Source: Octopus vulgaris (Eukaryota). From it: a stretch of 64,000 bases of DNA. Shown here piece after piece: positions 5,292 through 63,285 of the stretch. Positions within the stretch are counted from its first letter, which is position 1. Each line of letters starts with the position of its first letter. A model generated the notes under the pieces. The model saw only the letters and a list, made by a program, of their open reading frames with translations. It was not told the DNA's origin and did not search any database. The translations under genes and the position numbers were made by a program. The DNA lies in assembly GCA_951406725.2 (NCBI GenBank), contig OX597815.1:185256001-185320000 (forward strand), read 5' to 3'.

Positions 5292-5331
<40 letters not shown>

Positions 5332-5509
5332 TATATATATATTTATGTACATACGTAGATATATATATATATATATATATAAATATATCACAATCAAGGA
5401 ACGGCCATAATAGGCCATTCACCCACTAGAAATAACAGCCAAAAGCTTTAACCGCAAAATAACATTAATACCGTAAACCAGGAGAAAATTGAAAAACTTT
5501 TACCCTGTA

Positions 5510-5616
5510 ATTTCTTAGACGATGCACCGTTTCATCTACCGTTTAATGGTAAACTAACCTGATTAAATTAAATCAAGCCAATCCACCATAGGCCCTTAGA
5601 CTCATCAGTAAGAAAT
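5510..5616 (-). ncRNA. Type I hammerhead ribozyme, copy 1
   Basis: AUUUCUUA-CUGAUGA-GUCUA...UAGAU-GAAA-CGGUGCAUCG-UC^UAAGAAAU. Confidence 0.88.
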
Positions 5617-5994
5617 AGCCAAATCGGAACAGATATTTTTCACGAGGCATTCCTCTTGCTGCCTCGGCAATATCTGACCTAAAATTTTCAAATCGTCGCA
5701 CTCGCGCCAAATTTATCGGCAGCAAATGAACCACCGATTCCGTTACGGAACTAACCAGAAAATTCATAATTAATCAATATAGGGTGGCAAAAAAAATTTT
5801 GTAGAATTCTTTTGCCACCAGCGGCCTAGTAGGAAAAAATTAAATAGTCATAAACCATTTTTACGTTCAACATCACAATCAAGGAACGGCCATAATAGGC
5901 CATTCACCCACTAGAAATAACAGCCAAAAGCTTTAACCGCAAAATAACATTAATACCGTAAACCAGGAGAAAATTGAAAAACTTTTACCCTGTA

Positions 5995-6101
5995 ATTTCT
6001 TAGACGATGCACCGTTTCATCTACCGTTTAATGGTAAACTAACCTGATTAAATTAAATCAAGCCAATCCACCATAGGCCCTTAGACTCATCAGTAAGAAA
6101 T
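5995..6101 (-). ncRNA. Type I hammerhead ribozyme, copy 2
   Basis: Same core and stems as copy 1. Confidence 0.88.
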
Positions 6102-6479
6102 AGCCAAATCGGAACAGATATTTTTCACGGGGCATTCCTCTTGCTGCCTCGGCAATATCTGACCTAAAATTTTCAAATCGTCGCACTCGCGCCAAATTTA
6201 TCGGCAGCAAATGAACCACCGATTCCGTTACGGAAATAACCAGAAAATTCATAATTAATCAATATAGGGTGGCAAAAAAAATTTTGTAGAATTCTTTTGC
6301 CACCAGCGGCCTAGTAGGAAAAAATTAAATAGTCATAAACCATTTTTACGTTCAACATCACAATCAAGGAACGGCCATAATAGGCCATTCACCCACTAGA
6401 AATAACAGCCAAAAGCTTTAACCGCAAAATAACATTAATACCGTAAACCAGGAGAAAATTGAAAAACTTTTACCCTGTA

Positions 6480-6586
6480 ATTTCTTAGACGATGCACCGT
6501 TTCATCTACCGTTTAATGGTAAACTAACCTGATTAAATTAAATCAAGCCAATCCACCATAGGCCCTTAGACTCATCAGTAAGAAAT
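6480..6586 (-). ncRNA. Type I hammerhead ribozyme, copy 3
   Basis: Same core and stems as copy 1. Confidence 0.88.
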
Positions 6587-6963
6587 AGCCAAATCGGAAC
6601 AGATATTTTTCACGAGGCATTCCTCTTGCTGCCTCGGCAATATCTGACCTAAAATTTTCAAATCGTCGCACTCGCGCCATATTTATCGGCAGCAAATGAA
6701 CCACCGATTCCGTTACGGAACTAACCAGAAAATTCATAATTAATCAATATAGGGTGGCAAAAAAATTTTGTAGAATTCTTTTGCCACCAGCGGCCTAGTA
6801 GGAAAAAATTAAATAGTCATAAACCATTTTTACGTTCAACATCACAATCAAGGAACGGCCATAATAGGCCATTCACCCACTAGAAATAACAGCCAAAAGC
6901 TTTAACCGCAAAATAACATTAATACCGTAAACCAGGAGAAAATTGAAAAACTTTTACCCTGTA

Positions 6964-7070
6964 ATTTCTTAGACGATGCACCGTTTCATCTACCGTTTAA
7001 TGGTAAACTAACCTGATTAAATTAAATCAAGCCAATCCACCATAGGCCCTTAGACTCATCAGTAAGAAAT
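6964..7070 (-). ncRNA. Type I hammerhead ribozyme, copy 4
   Basis: Same core and stems as copy 1. Confidence 0.88.
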
Positions 7071-7447
7071 AGCCAAATCGGAACAGATATTTTTCACGAG
7101 GCATTCCTCTTGCTGCCTCGGCAATATCTGACCTAAAATTTTCAAATCGTCGCACTCGCGCCAAATTTATCGGCAGCAAATGAACCACCGATTCCGTTAC
7201 GGAACTAACCAGAAAATTCATAATTAATCAATATAGGGTGGCAAAAAAATTTTGTAGAATTCTTTTGCCACCAGCGGCCTAGTAGGAAAAAATTAAATAG
7301 TCATAAACCATTTTTACGTTCAACATCACAATCAAGGAACGGCCATAATAGGCCATTCACCCACTAGAAATAACAGCCAAAAGCTTTAACCGCAAAATAA
7401 CATTAATACCGTAAACCAGGAGAAAATTGAAAAACTTTTACCCTGTA

Positions 7448-7554
7448 ATTTCTTAGACGATGCACCGTTTCATCTACCGTTTAATGGTAAACTAACCTGA
7501 TTAAATTAAATCAAGCCAATCCACCATAGGCCCTTAGACTCATCCGTAAGAAAT
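7448..7554 (-). ncRNA. Type I hammerhead ribozyme, copy 5, core-mutated (CUGAUGA to CGGAUGA)
   Basis: Plus strand reads CATCCG instead of CATCAG at position 7545. Confidence 0.8.
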
Positions 7555-7932
7555 AGCCAAATCGGAACAGATATTTTTCACGAGGCATTCCTCTTGCTGC
7601 CTCGGCAATATCTGACCTAAAATTTTCAAATCGTCGCACTCGCGCCAAATTTATCGGCAGCAAATGAACCACAGATTCCGTTACGGAACTAACCAGAAAA
7701 TTCATAATTAATCAATATAGGGTGGCAAAAAAAATTTTGTAGAATTGTTTTGCCACCAGCGGCCTAGTAGGAAAAAATTAAATAGTCATAAACCATTTTT
7801 ACGTTCAACATCACAATCAAGGAACGGCCATAATAGGCCATTCACCCACTAGAAATAACAGCCAAAAGCTTTAACCGCAAAATAACATTAATACCGTAAA
7901 CCAGGAGAAAATTGAAAAACTTTTACCCTGTA

Positions 7933-8039
7933 ATTTCTTAGACGATGCACCGTTTCATCTACCGTTTAATGGTAAACTAACCTGATTAAATTAAATCAAG
8001 CCAATCCACCATAGGCCCTTAGACTCATCAGTAAGAAAT
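7933..8039 (-). ncRNA. Type I hammerhead ribozyme, copy 6
   Basis: Same core and stems as copy 1. Confidence 0.88.
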
Positions 8040-8085
8040 AGCCAAATCGGAACAGATATTTTTCACGAGGCATTCCTCTTGCTGC

Positions 8086-8615
8086 AAGAATTCTACAAAA
8101 TTTTTTTTGCCACCCTATATTGATTAATTATGAATTTTCTGGTTAGTTCCGTAACGGAATCGGTGGTTCATTTGCTGCCGATAAATTTGGCGCGAGTGCG
8201 ACGATTTGAAAATTTTAGGTCAGATATTGCCGAGGCAGCAAGAGGAATGCCTCGTGAAAAATATCTGTTCCGATTTGGCTATTTCTTACTGATGAGTCTA
8301 AGGGCCTATGGTGGATTGGCTTGATTTAATTTAATCAGGTTAGTTTACCATTAAACGGTAGATGAAACGGTGCATCGTCTAAGAAATTACAGGGTAAAAG
8401 TTTTTCAATTTTCTCCTGGTTTACGGTATTAATGTTATTTTGCGGTTAAAGCTTTTGGCTGTTATTTCTAGTGGGTGAATGGCCTATTATGGCCGTTCCT
8501 TGATTGTGATGTTGAACGTAAAAATGGTTTATGACTATTTAATTTTTTCCTACTAGGCCGCTGGTGGCAAAAGAATTCTACAAAATTTTTTTGCCACCCT
8601 ATATTGATTGATTAT
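8086..8615 (+). mobile_element. Inverted, slightly longer than monomer copy of the retrozyme unit
   Basis: Reverse complement of the tandem unit, joined at GCTGC|AAGAATTC. Confidence 0.9.
8281..8387 (+). ncRNA. Type I hammerhead ribozyme, copy 7 (inverted unit)
   Basis: Stem I 8281-8288/8380-8387, CTGATGA 8289-8295, GAAA 8364-8367, predicted GUC cleavage after 8379. Confidence 0.88.
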
Positions 8616-8649
8616 ATATAAATATATATATATATTTATGTACATACGT

Positions 8650-8714
<65 letters not shown>

Positions 8715-10180: not shown

Positions 10181-11334
10181 CTTTGATACTTTGATAGGTT
10201 TCGGCCATTATTGGCCCAGGCCATGTCTAACTTAATAGCACCACCTGGTGAAGTCTTTCAAGTCAGAATTTGGGCACTATGGCCGACTCAAGTAGAGAGT
10301 TATTGTTTACAGAGACATATCCGGGTGTAGGGGGTTTATCCGGGATTTCTTGAAGGAATCTGTCCAAAGACTTCTTGAACCCTATAGGGTCAGTTTCTGT
10401 TTTAATGTGTTTTGGTGTAATGTTAAAGAGAGCGGGGCCAATTGAGGTGAAATAATTGTGCCGTATTGTTGTTATGAGATGAGAGTGCGATTTTTGTTTT
10501 GGGCGGATGGCACGGGGCCCAAGCCTTGGATGTACCTTAAAGGTGATGCCAACATCATTTGGGCAATGCTGATGGAATATTTTCCACATCATGCAGATGA
10601 TGTAGCGCTCACGACGACGTTGGAGAGAATAGAGTTTTAGCTTTTCTAGTCGACCCCAATAGTCGAGGCCTGTCATGCCATCTATCTTTTTTGTGATTGC
10701 CCTTTGAGGTGCTTCGACTTTTTTGATACCTTGTATTGTGTGGGGAGACCACAGTGGACAACAGTATTCAAGGTGGGGTCGGGCAAAAGTGGAGAAGAGA
10801 GGGATAATGGTGTGGATATCTCTCGACTGGAAAGTTCTGAGAATCCAGGAACACATTCTGCGGGCCATGTCAACTTTGGTGTTTATATGAGTGGCCCAGC
10901 TTACGTTGTTGTCCACAATTACTCCCAAGTCTCTGATGTTGTTGGACGCCGCGAGAGTTTCACCTGAAGGAAGGGAGTATGGGAGTTTCAGGGCATCCTC
11001 TTTTCCAAAGTGGATTAGCTCAAATTTATCCTCGTTCAGCAGCATATTGTTTTTTTCTGCCCATTGGATAACAGCCAGTAGATCTGACTGAAGGCATGTC
11101 CGGTCACTCGCCTCATTTATGACCTTCTGTAGCTTGGAGTCATCTGCAAAGATTTTTATGTTGCTGTGCTTGATGATGTCATTAATGTCATTAATGTAAA
11201 TGATAAAAAGAAGTGGGCCCAGCACAGTGCCTTGCGGAACGCCACTACTGACTTTGGCTGGGCTTGATTTTACCCCTTCAACTACAACATGTTGAGATCT
11301 GTCTGTCAGGAAACACTTAATCCATTTCAGTAAC

Positions 11335-11943: not shown

Positions 11944-14900
11944 TCATGGGGGCTTTCTAGCAACTGCTATTTGGTGCATGAGAGAGTTCGATGCAGCTGC
12001 CCTCATCTGCCCCTCCTGCCGTGAAGTTGGTTCATCTGGGACACCAGACAGGAAGAGATCCAGCTTCATTTTAAAGACATCTGTATCCACCCCATGCAGG
12101 TCTCTCAGGTTCTTCGGGAGGATATTGAAGAGCTGTGGGCCTCGGAAGCCCAGGCTATCACAGAATCTTGTCCTACATCTTGATGGCAGGTTTGGAGTCC
12201 TAGGCACCACGCAGTGCGCCCAGTTCTGGCATTTGTGTAACTCTCGATGCCAAAGTTCAGGACACTTCCCTCCAGGATCTTCCAGATGTATATTATGGCA
12301 TATCTTTCCCGCCTACGCTCCAGGGAGTATAATTTTAATCTCTTGAGTCTTTCCCAGTAGCTTACATTCTGCATAGAGGCTATCTTCTTTGTGTAGCTTC
12401 GTTGGATCGCCTCAAGTTCTGTGATCAACTTGACACTGGATGGTGACCATAGCTGAGAGCAATAGTCAAAGTGGCTTAGGACAAGTGTCTTCCAGAGGAC
12501 CATCATGGTTTCTTGTTCTCTTGTTCTAAAGGTTCTAAGAATCCAGCCAGCCAGCCGTCTACATTTCACTGTCAGTTTAGCAACATGTACATGAAAGGTC
12601 GCGTCATCACTCATGTGAATACCCAGGTCACGCACTGATTGTGCCTCTGGGATTGCAATCCCTCCGGGTCCAGTGTATTCATTGGGTATTGCATTCAGTT
12701 TTGCATGCTGATAGTATAAAGCTTGAAACTTTCCAGCATTGAACTGCATGCTATTCTTTTCAGCCCACTTGTATATTTCGTCCAGCTCACATTGCAGGTT
12801 TTTAGTGTCCTCAGGGTTCTGTATTGCCTGTGAAACTTTTGTATCATCTGCATAACTTGTGATCGTGGATCTCTGCGTGGCTGAGGGCATGTCTGAGAGG
12901 GCCATTATGAACAGTAGTGGTCCCAAAACAGTGCCCTGTGGAACACCACTCATTATTTGCGTGTTAATGGAAGTGGCCCCATTGGCTACTACCACCTGAC
13001 TTCTATTCTTCAGAAAGTCGTGAAGCCATTCTCCTAGTTTTCCAACTATGCCAAGATCACGCAACCTGTGACATATCATTCCGTGATCGACTTTATCGAA
13101 GGCCTTTGCGAAGTCGAGATATATGACTTCCACATTTGAGTGGTTGAGCAGTTGTTTCAGCACCCAGTCATAGTGCTGCAGGAGCTGAGTTAAGCAGCTT
13201 CTTCCTGGTCGGAAACCATGTTGGGTGTCAGGCAGCAAGTCATTTTCTTCAAGGAAGGTGATTAGTTTCCTTCTGACTATTCGTTCCATGACCTTGCTGA
13301 TGTGTGAGGTCAGAGAGATAGGTCTGTAGTTCTTTGCCTCCGCTCTGCTACCTCCTTTATGAATAGGGCATATTTTACCTTCCTTCAGTCCCCTTGGAAG
13401 TTTGCCAGCTGCAAGGAAGCTCTGAAAGAGGGACTGCAGTGGTCTTGCTAAGACTCTCTTACATACTTTTAGGAGGATTGCCGGGAATCCATCGGGGCCA
13501 GTAGCTGAGTCTATTTTCATTTCATCTATAGCCTTTATTACATCGTCTTCCTTTATCTCGATGTAACTTATCGTCGCCGCCTCTGATTCTATATCTGCAG
13601 TGGTAAAGAAGTCAGTTGGATTGCTGATTTGGAAATGCCCAAGGGGTGGAGTGAAAACACTCTTGAATTGTTCATTCAGTATTTCACTTACCCTCATTGG
13701 TTTTCCTGTGAGTGTGCCATCCTTTTCAAGGAGTGGCCCTATCCTACAGTGCACTGTAGCCGTTTCTTTGGCATACCTGTAGAAAGCTCTGGGGTTAGTT
13801 TTTATGTTGTCTATAGCCCAGGCTTCTTTGTCTGCTCTTTCCTTCTCATGGGAAAGTTGCAGACAATTTTCAATTTCCAACAGTTTTATTTTCAGGCGGG
13901 ACTTTTCACTACTTTCAATTTGTTTGTTTAGGCGATTTGAAATTTTTGTACGCCGTCTCATTAAAATTTTCCTCTCTCTGGGGATTTTGTTCTTGTGTAC
14001 AGTGGCCTTTCTCTCTGGGACACATTTGTAGCATATGGCTTGCATTACAGACATGAATTGTTGAAGTATCATGTCGATGTCCGGCGAGGAGAGACATTCA
14101 GGCCAGTTTTGTTTGAGGATCTCTTTCTCAATTTGTTTCCAGTTTGCCTTATTGAAGTTCAAGCTGGAAAGATTCTGAGGGTTTCTTGTAGGCTGCATGT
14201 CCGTGCTCTCTTTTGGCCCGTACATGGTCAGCTCTACCATGTTGTGATCCGAGAGTAGTGTCGGTGTCACTTTCACATTATGGATGAGATCCATATTATT
14301 TGTGAAGCAGAGATCCAGTGTGTTACCTGCTCTGGTTGGTTGCAGTACTACTTGCTCCATGTACAGGGTGTTGGTGAGGTTCAGGAGGGACCTCGCCTGT
14401 CCACGTTCACATCTTGTCATTCCTGGGAGAGAAAGGCCCTCGGGCCATCTGACATTCGGTAGATTGAAGTCTCCCATGAGAAGTACACTTATGTGTTGTT
14501 CTAATGTGGTTAGAACTTCTTCTATTTTTAAAAGGCAGTCCTCGAACTTGCCCATATGACTTGGGGCATCTGGAGGGCGATATGTAGCACACACAACTAC
14601 ATCAAGTTGCCTTATGTGTACAATTAGTGTGTCACACACCGAGTTTGAGTATGACAAAAGGACCTGGGGTGTGAGGTCCCCACGGATGTACATAGCAACT
14701 CCTCCATGACTCCTTTCTTTCCTGTCGGTCCGTAGTACAACATACTGTGGTATGTGTAATTCCGCATCTGCTATGTCCGGTTTCAGATGCGTTTCTGTGA
14801 GTGCTATGCATAAGGCTTGATTGCATGCGACAAAGTCTCTCAGGAACGGGACTTTTGTCCTGTTACTGTGTGTTAGTAAACCTCTGATGTTCAGTAGGAG

Positions 14901-15242
14901 CATCGAGGTGAGGTGTATGCTGTTGCCGGCGTTGTCCACCCTGGGTCCATCTGCTGTGGCGGTCTTGTGAACTGTGGGCAGTTCCATCTGCGAGCCTGAG
15001 CCTGATGGAGCCAGGTTAACTGCTGTACAATCTTTTGTGCCATGCACAAAAAGATTCCTGCTCAGCAGCTGCCCTTTCAACAACACGTTGGTGGTTTGTG
15101 GTACGCACCACATCTGCGTACCTCCGTTTTGGGGCAGGTGATGCCTGGTCCATCCCATTTCCTTTCGGTGGTTGGTTTCTGTGGCAGGGTCCCGGATGTG
15201 CAAAGCGGCAGCCTGCACCTTCCTCTCCATGCCGGCAGGCAC
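11944..15242 (-). CDS. LINE ORF2, apurinic-type endonuclease plus reverse transcriptase; one 1-bp frameshift near 12215
   Basis: EN motifs LNIRG, ALTETHL, YRPP, GDFNLP, LDLCF, SDH. RT motifs [37 protein letters not shown]. The C-terminus continues in the 11944-12210 frame. The real start may be the ATG at 14987. Confidence 0.92.
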
Positions 15243-15780
15243 CTTTCAGGTAGAACCTACATACCCGTGTGCGCTGCTTGTTTCCATCCTTTTTGGCATA
15301 TGGACCGTTAGGTTTGCCTCTGTCCCTGGCTGCCTTGTCCCTTGGCTTTGTCTGAGTTTTAGCTTCAGTTTTTCCTCTTTTTTTGGCCTCTTCATCTCCA
15401 TGTCCACGGCTTTTGGAGCCGGTAGGAGCATCCGTACCTGGGTTCACCTCCCGGGCAGGCCTATCGTTGGAGTTTTCTTCCTGGGCGTCCACCAGGTGGG
15501 GGTGACCCTCCTCATCTGCGCCCACGTCTCCATCCTTGCCATCTTTACTTTGTTCGCGTTTTTCGCTGTTAAAAATGGCATCCAGTGTGTTTATGTGCGA
15601 TCTGACAAGTGCGTATGAGCGTACGAACTCTTGCCTCTTCCGCTCTATTTGTGCTGATGTCCTTTTGAATCCTTTGTTCTTTAGTGCTGCCGCAATTATG
15701 TTACTTGGACTTTCTCCGTCAGCGCATTGCCATCCTCGCAGGAACCACACCAGTTCATCACGTTTCCAAGCTCTGGACAT
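15016..15780 (-). CDS. LINE ORF1 protein with a CCCH-type zinc finger and a possible Myb/trihelix-like N-terminus
   Basis: [22 protein letters not shown] (C-x7-C-x8-C-x3-H). N-terminal AWKRDEL...RTSAQIERKRQE. Lies directly upstream of ORF2. Confidence 0.8.
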   Translation of the reverse strand: MSRAWKRDELVWFLRGWQCADGESPSNIIAAALKNKGFKRTSAQIERKRQEFVRSYALVRSHINTLDAIFNSEKREQSKDGKDGDVGADEEGHPHLVDAQEENSNDRPAREVNPGTDAPTGSKSRGHGDEEAKKRGKTEAKTQTKPRDKAARDRGKPNGPYAKKDGNKQRTRVCRFYLKGACRHGEEGAGCRFAHPGPCHRNQPPKGNGMDQASPAPKRRYADVVRTTNHQRVVERAAAEQESFCAWHKRLYSS

Positions 15781-27274: not shown

Positions 27275-28050
27275 CTACTCTAGGCAACAGGCCCGAAATT
27301 TTTGGGGGCGGGGGGGTCGCTTAAATCGGCCCCAGAACTTAACAGGTACTTAATTTATCGACTCCGAAAGGATGAAAGGCAAAGTCGACCTCGGCGAAAT
27401 TTGAACTCAGAACGTAAAAGATGAAATACCGATTTCCTTACAAGGGGCAAAACACAGAGAGGACAAACAAGGACAGACAAACGGATTAAGTCGATTATAT
27501 CGACCCCAGTGCGAAACTGGTACTTAATTTACTCGACCCCGAAAGGATGAAAGGCAAAGTCGACCTCGGCGAAATTTGAACTCAGAAGGTAAAAGATGAA
27601 ATACCGATTTCTTTACTACCCACAAGGGACAAAACACAGAGAGGACAAACAAGGACATACAAACGGATTAAGTCGATTATATCGACCCCAGTGCGTAACT
27701 GGTACTTATTTACTCGACCCCGAAAAGATGAATGGCAAAGTCGACCTCGGTGGAATTTGAACTCAGAACGTAACGGCAGACGAAATACCGCTAGGCATTT
27801 CGCCCGGGGTGCTACCTTTTCTGCTAGCTCGCCGCCTTTATTCTTTTCTACTCTAGGCACAAGGCCCGATATTTTGGAAGTGGCCAGTTGATTAGATCGA
27901 TCTCAGTACGCAACTGGTACTTGATTTATCGATCCAGAAAGGATGAACGGCAAAGTCGACCTCGGCGAAATTTGAACTCAGAACGTAGCGGCAGACAAAA
28001 TACCGCCAAGGATTTCGCCCGGCGTGCTAACGTTTTTGCCAGCTCGCCAC
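27275..28050 (-). mobile_element. Cluster of tandem SINE family A units
   Basis: Four GGCAAAGTCGACCTCGG body units and two heads. Confidence 0.8.
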
Positions 28051-62837: not shown

Positions 62838-63285
62838 TTATTTCTTCATTGCCCACAGCGGGGCAAAAGCTCGCGAGCAAAAGGGCAAAAACTCGCTCGA
62901 TAGAGGAGACAAACAAGGACAGACAAACGGATTAAGTCGATTATATCGACCCCAGTGCGTAACTGGTACTTATTTAATCGACCTCAAAAGGATGAAATGC
63001 AAAGTCAACCTCGGCGGAATTTGAACTCAGAACGTAACGACAGACGAAATAACTATTTCTTTACTACCCACAAGGGGCTAAACACAGAGAGGAGAAACAA
63101 GGACAGACAAACGGATTACGTCGATTATATCGACCCCAGTGCGTAACTGGTACTTATTTAATCGACCCCGAAAGGATGAAAGGCAAAGTCCACCTCGGCG
63201 GTATTTGAACTCAGAACGTAACGGCAGACGAAATACCGTGAAGTATTTTGCCCGACATGCTAACGATTGTGCCAGCTCGTTGCCC
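62838..63285 (-). mobile_element. SINE family A dimer
   Basis: Head plus two body units. Confidence 0.82.

Follow-up and report, generated by a model that had tools for sequence, protein, structure and literature searches.

Within a window of 64,000 nucleotides of the Octopus vulgaris genome (GCA_951406725.2, contig OX597815.1, positions 185,256,001 to 185,320,000), a sequence-only reading had picked out positions 8086..8600 as a monomer that folds into a branched structure, with G-U pairs on its hammerhead strand only. It had proposed that selection acted on RNA of one polarity rather than on DNA cruciforms, as in viroid-like circular RNAs. This raises the questions of what kind of element the stretch belongs to, and whether its fold has been selected as RNA and on one strand.

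Structure of the insertion

Positions 8086-8615 on the plus strand and 5387-8085 on the minus strand form one head-to-head insertion (5387-8615) in a (TA)n tract. The inserted element is an animal non-LTR retrozyme, a tandem retroelement that has a 485-base unit and codes for no protein, and its insertion here is recent. The stretch 8086-8615, one of the two arms, comprises 1.09 periods of the unit, is 5'-truncated and ends at a fixed 3' end, B (8610-8615). The minus arm contains 5.6 tandem units of 484-485 nt, which are 99% alike, is 5'-truncated at 8085 and terminates at 5387, a second fixed 3' end (A) that corresponds to 8510 in the plus arm. It holds five monomers that run from cleavage site to cleavage site (5518-6002, 6003-6487, 6488-6971, 6972-7455 and 7456-7940). 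A target-site duplication of 62 bases, formed by an interrupted (TA)n tract, lies at 5320..5381, inside the (TA)n tract, and at 8613..8674, on the other side of the insertion. No reading frame of 200 or more amino acids is present in 5387-8615.

The monomer of the sequence-only reading, 8086..8600, does contain one hammerhead and a full period, but it is a permuted period and not a cleavage-to-cleavage unit. The hammerhead strand is the plus strand in 8086-8615 but the minus strand in the adjoining arm. As the two arms face apart, a read-through transcript of 5387-8615 could form a near-perfect double-stranded hairpin of 530 bp that would replace the branched fold; the potential for such an inter-arm hairpin is common to most insertions of the family.

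The hammerhead ribozyme

Each unit carries one predicted type I hammerhead, located at 8281..8387 of the plus strand in the window. It consists of an 8-bp stem I (8281-8288/8380-8387), a CUGAUGA sequence (8289-8295), stem II (8296-8300/8359-8363), a GAAA sequence (8364-8367) and a near-palindromic stem III (8368-8377), with the predicted cut after GUC, at 8379 (8379/8380). We take CUGAUGA and GAAA to be the conserved core motifs of the ribozyme. The insertion contains seven cores, six of them intact: besides the one on the plus strand, these start at 8031, 7062, 6578, 6093 and 5608 of the minus strand. The only altered core (7540..7546, minus strand) has a change at its second base. Stem III is a palindrome or near-palindrome in three different sequences across the subfamilies described below, and the circular fold of minimum energy mispairs the catalytic core; a fold that forms the hammerhead lies 3.9 kcal/mol higher. 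The antisense strand of the unit has no hammerhead core.

Rfam produced no match in the window at the gathering score, probably because the long stem II hides the hammerhead from it. A pattern with the same stem III and a short stem II (20-50 bases) had no matches in the genome. Two further observations concern hammerheads elsewhere. An array of about 15 units of the A3 subfamily (L196:581-7667) has the core CUGAAGA, a perfectly palindromic stem III and GUA at the cut, and a further type I hammerhead whose stem II is long (L109:39-112) belongs to an element that ends in (TA)n and does not match the retrozyme family.

The retrozyme family

Genome-wide, the exact core pattern matched 956 times, with no match to a control pattern, and the sister pattern 198 times. 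From the loci we fetched, we extracted 169 full units of 471-495 nt, which fall into five subfamilies: A1, to which the unit at 8086-8615 belongs, A2 (94% identity), A3 (88%), B1 (70%) and B2 (73%). A divergent right arm at one locus (L077), considered as a possible second family, reads as a damaged copy of this same family. Four other organisms (B to E) also have related sequence in their sequencing runs. Contigs from four runs, presumed to be of RNA, cover 28-30 of 30 bins and are uninformative on strand, level and circularity; a contig joint that leads back by 485 bases is equally compatible with tandem DNA and with a circle. Our literature searches found no paper on this octopus family, although the supplements of retrozyme papers may list such repeats.

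Folding of the two strands

All seven helices proposed for the plus strand are present, with 69 pairs, 12 of them G-U, and no mismatch, and all were recovered in the predicted structure of 8086-8600. The longest, a 19-bp helix with six G-U pairs and no mismatch (8308-8326/8333-8351, spanning 8308..8351), extends hammerhead stem II; in eight units from five subfamilies, 98% of its cells are paired. Upstream of the ribozyme lie small hairpins of 5 bp (8147-8151/8155-8159) and of 8 bp with three G-U pairs (8160-8167/8174-8181), as well as a 6-bp hairpin (8232-8237/8248-8253) that is the least conserved of the seven, with 85% of cells paired. Downstream, an 8-bp helix with one G-U pair (8468-8475/8549-8556) closes a branched domain, 8468..8556, which contains an 8-bp hairpin with one G-U pair (8477-8484/8491-8498) and, in a loop, the fixed 3' end A (8510). 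Just before the fixed 3' end B, a 15-bp hairpin with one G-U pair (8563..8598) has two pairs in which both partners differ in the B subfamilies.

The plus strand of 8086-8600 folds with -153.5 kcal/mol (z -4.54, none of 100 shuffles as good), the minus strand with -100.6 kcal/mol (z -2.05, 3 of 100 as good). For circular folds we took one monomer of the adjoining array that runs from cut to cut (6488-6971). Here too, both strands are better than shuffles and unequal, with -142.9 kcal/mol for the ribozyme strand (z -5.4) and -86.9 for the antisense strand (z -2.3), a gap of -56.0 kcal/mol, compared with -38.6 +/- 5.6 in shuffles, none of which reached it (0/150). When G-U pairs are forbidden, this gap nearly vanishes (-91.1 vs -84.4), so it is the G-U pairs that carry the asymmetry. 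Their share, however, is no higher than in shuffles (29 of 161 pairs, 18%, vs 20.5 +/- 2.2%), and the G+U-rich composition by itself yields about 39 of the 56 kcal. Since base composition accounts for about two thirds of the gap, the number of G-U pairs alone does not prove selection on one polarity.

The antisense strand also folds better than its shuffles, and strongly so in sister subfamilies. In real units of A3, B1 and B2, the z-scores were -5.2, -5.3 and -7.9 for the ribozyme strand and -3.5, -4.8 and -5.4 for the antisense strand; those of the strand gap were -2.3 (weak), -1.1 (not significant) and -3.3, respectively. Under DNA parameters, the gap is just 7.7 kcal/mol (-48.7 vs -41.0), which speaks against DNA cruciforms.

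Conservation of the fold across subfamilies

We scored the conservation of the seven helices in eight real units from the five subfamilies (544 cells). Paired states occupy 95.6% of the cells, compared with 29-49% when the partners are slid. Compensatory changes, which the earlier reading had expected among family members, occur at five pairs that change on both sides, but 46 of 500 shuffles reach this number. The cells with two-sided changes number 14, a count as high in none of 500 shuffles, and the further pair types 28, which is below the shuffles (31.1). Classical covariation in the seven helices is modest.

One-sided changes at the G-U pairs of the seven helices are more informative. Eleven of the twelve G-U pairs also occur as Watson-Crick pairs in sister subfamilies, which are 70-94% identical, the twelfth aligns to a gap, and none is broken; all twelve alternative states are Watson-Crick. 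Because the seven helices had been read from the window itself, we also used strand-neutral helices, which contain only Watson-Crick pairs, are found on both strands, and are defined in one family and scored in the other. Pairs defined in B had changed in A to G-U in 12 cases and to A-C in 3 (p 0.035), with other mismatches at 12 of 63; those defined in A had changed in B to G-U in 8 cases and to A-C in 3 (p 0.23, not significant). Among young copies, changes that occur throughout an array keep confident pairs in 12 cases and break them in 9, whereas those in single units keep such pairs in 26 cases and break them in 68 (Fisher p 0.019).

Beyond the ribozyme, too, the fold appears to be under selection, as five subfamilies keep the same helices while G-U and Watson-Crick pairs interchange in them. 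Selection on RNA of the ribozyme polarity, proposed earlier from the G-U pairs, draws most of its support from this interchange, from the drift of strand-neutral pairs and from the inherited changes, but not from the G-U count. We consider the support to be of moderate strength, because the subfamilies provide only a handful of independent branches.

Insertion footprint and copying

We parsed 73 loci of the A family, comprising 42 clean two-armed, 20 one-armed and 11 irregular or mis-parsed loci. All 42 clean two-armed loci join one end A (equivalent to 8510) to one end B (8610-8615), about 100 bases apart, and the B subfamilies, read by eye, end at the same two sites. TA tracts flank both sides at 58 of 69 loci. 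Informative target duplications were found at only three of the 69, since most flanks are pure (TA)n. Neither fixed end coincides with the ribozyme cut, which implies that copying starts inside the unit and, over as many as seven units, continues past the cut site. Our literature searches found no paper on coupled two-end insertions.

With the A3 array left out, 14 locus-private changes, in 13 loci, are present in every unit that covers them, ten of them in both arms; six are present in only some units and 163 in a single unit. The haplotypes of arrays are nested. Each new variant is thus funnelled through one unit before being multiplied, which is what copying round a circular template would produce. 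Four loci (L035, L038, L048, L081) have mixed arrays, which a single circle would not explain and which reveal additional template switching or the use of multimeric templates.

We placed the 5' ends of 117 arms in three registers, after excluding a probable duplicate, three arms whose shortness prevented placement, an extra piece of L084 and the A3 array. Eighteen lie at the helix that closes the branched domain, where 6.1 are expected (corrected p 0.004), and nine within 12 bases after the predicted cut, where 3.2 are expected (p 0.0045 for the preset window, 0.39 after correction for scanning). Both clusters fit stalling on a folded RNA template. At some loci, short arms are heavily damaged by small deletions and TA insertions beside an intact arm (L077:4993-5281, L049:2028-2184, L084:3151-3486), suggesting error-prone finishing of the second strand.

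Penelope-type elements in the octopus genome

The same genome contains young elements with a reverse transcriptase and a GIY-YIG endonuclease, in frames of 781 and 775 amino acids and with TA flanks. The 775-residue Penelope-type family has two 3' ends 32 bases apart, TA tracts and a minimal hammerhead-like motif. It is represented by loci L200-L229 (e.g. L206), where many 775-residue frames are open, 75 of the 76 matches listed are 100% identical in protein over 571 residues, and a hammerhead-like core, CCGAAGA, lies about 500 bases after the stop codon. In a second Penelope-type family (L132-L147), the 781-residue frames are accompanied by partial tandem and inverted copies, and the ends are 39 bases apart; a descriptor search found no hammerhead in its terminal repeat. 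Judged from the CxxxxCxxC linker motif alone, the local elements may be Neptune-like.

A blastn search of the unit against 20 Penelope-type loci matched only retrozyme fragments, and so did a profile of the unit against 51 and 30 such loci, which sample a part of the Penelope-type families of this genome. The offset between the retrozyme ends is about 100 bases, that of the local Penelope-type elements 32-39. Penelope-like elements are described, in the available part of PMC8557442, as having an inverted 5'-truncated copy, an extension of 30-40 bp at one end, and microsatellite targets.

Relation to known systems

The octopus family has features of three known systems. Hammerhead viroids and viroid-like satellite RNAs are, like the octopus unit, small, non-coding and branched, have many G-U pairs and process multimers by hammerhead cleavage. 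Hammerhead viroids, however, carry hammerheads on both polarities, whereas the octopus unit has the ribozyme on one strand only, is encoded in the genome and, unlike them, is likely spread by reverse transcription. The comparison with viroid-like circular RNAs made in the sequence-only reading thus holds as a resemblance but not further, given that the antisense strand lacks a core and that the unit spreads as genomic insertions with a Penelope-type footprint, in a family of at least 956 plus 198 cores.

With animal non-LTR retrozymes, as far as they are described in the available parts of PMC7229834 and bioRxiv 10.64898/2026.07.22.740005, the family shares non-coding tandem units of low GC content (36-38%) with one type I hammerhead each, RNA predicted to be strongly self-paired, long duplications of the target, copies scattered over the genome and the co-occurrence of Penelope-like elements. 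It differs in unit size (471-495 nt, compared with 220-245 in coral, 350-390 in mussel, 330-350 in axolotl and 51-972 in a vertebrate survey) and in its stem II, which the 19-bp helix extends to 68 nt. In these sources, insertions that are mostly head-to-head, with two coupled fixed ends, are not described. Further, no pseudo-LTR related in sequence to the octopus unit was found among the 51 and 30 Penelope-type loci sampled, whereas in Xenopus known elements are matched by 24 of 57 families. The 484-485-nt hammerhead tandem without coding capacity, its dispersal with a duplication of more than 4 bp and the stable RNA of the ribozyme strand make animal non-LTR retrozyme the right class, with self-cleavage and a circle being predicted.

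The similarities to Penelope-like elements with a C-terminal GIY-YIG domain, in the published part available to us (PMC8557442), are 5' truncation, partial tandems, an inverted 5'-truncated arm, a one-sided extension at the end, (TA)n targets and a hammerhead in the repeat. The octopus unit is distinguished by the lack of a reading frame, by the offset of about 100 bases rather than 30-40, and by a full-sized rather than minimal hammerhead. Its inverted arm with one-sided extension (42/42) and the local reverse transcriptase and GIY-YIG elements that share its target are what one expects of a non-autonomous Penelope-like element.

Self-paired folds had already been predicted for the animal retrozyme class (available parts of PMC7229834 and bioRxiv 2026.07.22.740005); the octopus family adds a comparative test of the fold, with five subfamilies in one genome. 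In addition, its young insertions record the copying, with two coupled start sites and one unit copied many times, a step that is proposed but not demonstrated in the retrozyme literature as far as these parts cover it. With identical, apparently active Penelope-type enzymes alongside, the octopus offers a ready system in which to test for rolling-circle reverse transcription of an RNA circle.

Proposed mechanism and alternatives

We consider it probable, taking the whole chain together, that a folded RNA of the ribozyme strand cuts itself, is circularised and is copied into (TA)n by a Penelope-type reverse transcriptase. A retrozyme array would be transcribed, and the ribozyme-strand RNA would cleave itself at 8379/8380 into unit-length pieces, which a host ligase of the RtcB type may then close into circles. 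Ligation to a circle by RtcB is reported in vitro for axolotl and mussel retrozymes in the available part of PMC7229834; according to that of bioRxiv 2026.07.22.740005, in vitro cleavage failed for eight of the nine retrozyme dimers from Xenopus. The reverse transcriptase, primed from both cut strands of the target in (TA)n, would begin at sites A and B and pass repeatedly round the template, producing two multimeric arms that lie head to head and meet at their truncated 5' ends. Because only the RNA template cycles, changes between Watson-Crick and G-U that keep its pairing would survive and changes to A-C would be lost, which would explain the polarity of the fold. We also suggest, tentatively and with more doubt than confidence, that the 485-nt circle is a folded recognition platform that is primed twice, with two reverse transcriptases rolling round it, one per arm. 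The priming sites would then be defined by structure, about 100 bases apart, and would bracket the conserved 15-bp hairpin. If so, the partner enzyme would be chosen by RNA shape and not by shared end sequence, and the genome would directly record rolling-circle target-primed reverse transcription.

The same element with the same selected fold could also be copied without a circle, with the Penelope-type enzyme reading a linear, partly cleaved multimeric transcript or jumping end to end between linear monomers. The mixed arrays speak for this, as do the nine arms of 117 that stop within 12 bases past the predicted cut (3.2 expected), as if some templates began there, and the linear multimers that axolotl retrozymes accumulate together with circles (PMC7229834, available part). 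The cut-site cluster, however, is not significant after scan correction (p 0.39) and equally fits stalling at the base of stem I, and the stronger cluster sits at another helix. Private changes that run through whole arrays and both arms, together with the nested haplotypes, need repeated passage through a single unit, and we regard a linear template as unlikely.

Copying round a circle by a reverse transcriptase is also to be weighed against three further explanations. In one, the polarity is a by-product of strand-biased mutation, such as A-to-G or C-to-U RNA editing, which would generate G-U pairs with no need for the fold to be selected. In shuffles, composition does suffice for 39 of the 56 kcal of the gap and for an equal share of G-U pairs, and the excess of G over C is greater in A (0.16-0.23) than in B (0.07-0.08). 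Yet the changes themselves show no editing-like bias, both throughout A1 arrays (A>G 3, T>C 6, C>T 2 and G>A 6 of 25) and in single units (A>G 3, T>C 13, C>T 12 and G>A 14 of 81), the branch-polarised changes are mixed as well, and the helices persist at 70% identity with two-sided changes, which makes this explanation very improbable. We give even less credence to a viroid-like RNA that replicates from RNA to RNA and is written into the genome only occasionally, in spite of a small, non-coding, highly paired, hammerhead-bearing unit, an antisense strand that folds better than chance, and RNA-RNA replication having been raised as a possibility for mussel retrozymes (PMC7229834, available part): the antisense strand has no hammerhead core, the at least 956 genomic cores stand in stereotyped insertions, and an antisense fold signal of this kind arises from Watson-Crick stems whichever strand is folded. 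An equally slim chance attaches to stems that act in DNA, as cruciforms or as hairpins in the single-stranded DNA of a rolling-circle transposon, and to a satellite grown by unequal crossover. In single-stranded DNA, too, G-T is better tolerated than A-C. Tandem arrays reach at least 15 units (L196), and local satellite-type expansion is discussed in the available part of bioRxiv 2026.07.22.740005. Against an origin in DNA stand the small difference between the strands under DNA parameters (-48.7 vs -41.0 kcal/mol), the conservation of the complete hammerhead, the dispersed, 5'-truncated, head-to-head arrays with coupled ends and target duplications, and the private changes, which affect all units or one and not blocks of neighbouring units.

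Other repeats in the window

The window contains further repeats. An open frame of 1046 amino acids at 12105-15245 (minus strand) has endonuclease and reverse transcriptase domains and belongs to a LINE-type element, and a second reverse transcriptase fragment lies at 10263-11333 (minus strand). Another repeat, dispersed and with a period close to 184 bases, which we take to be a SINE-type element from its appearance, occurs in tandem pairs at 2073-2424, 27316-27773 and 62902-63235.
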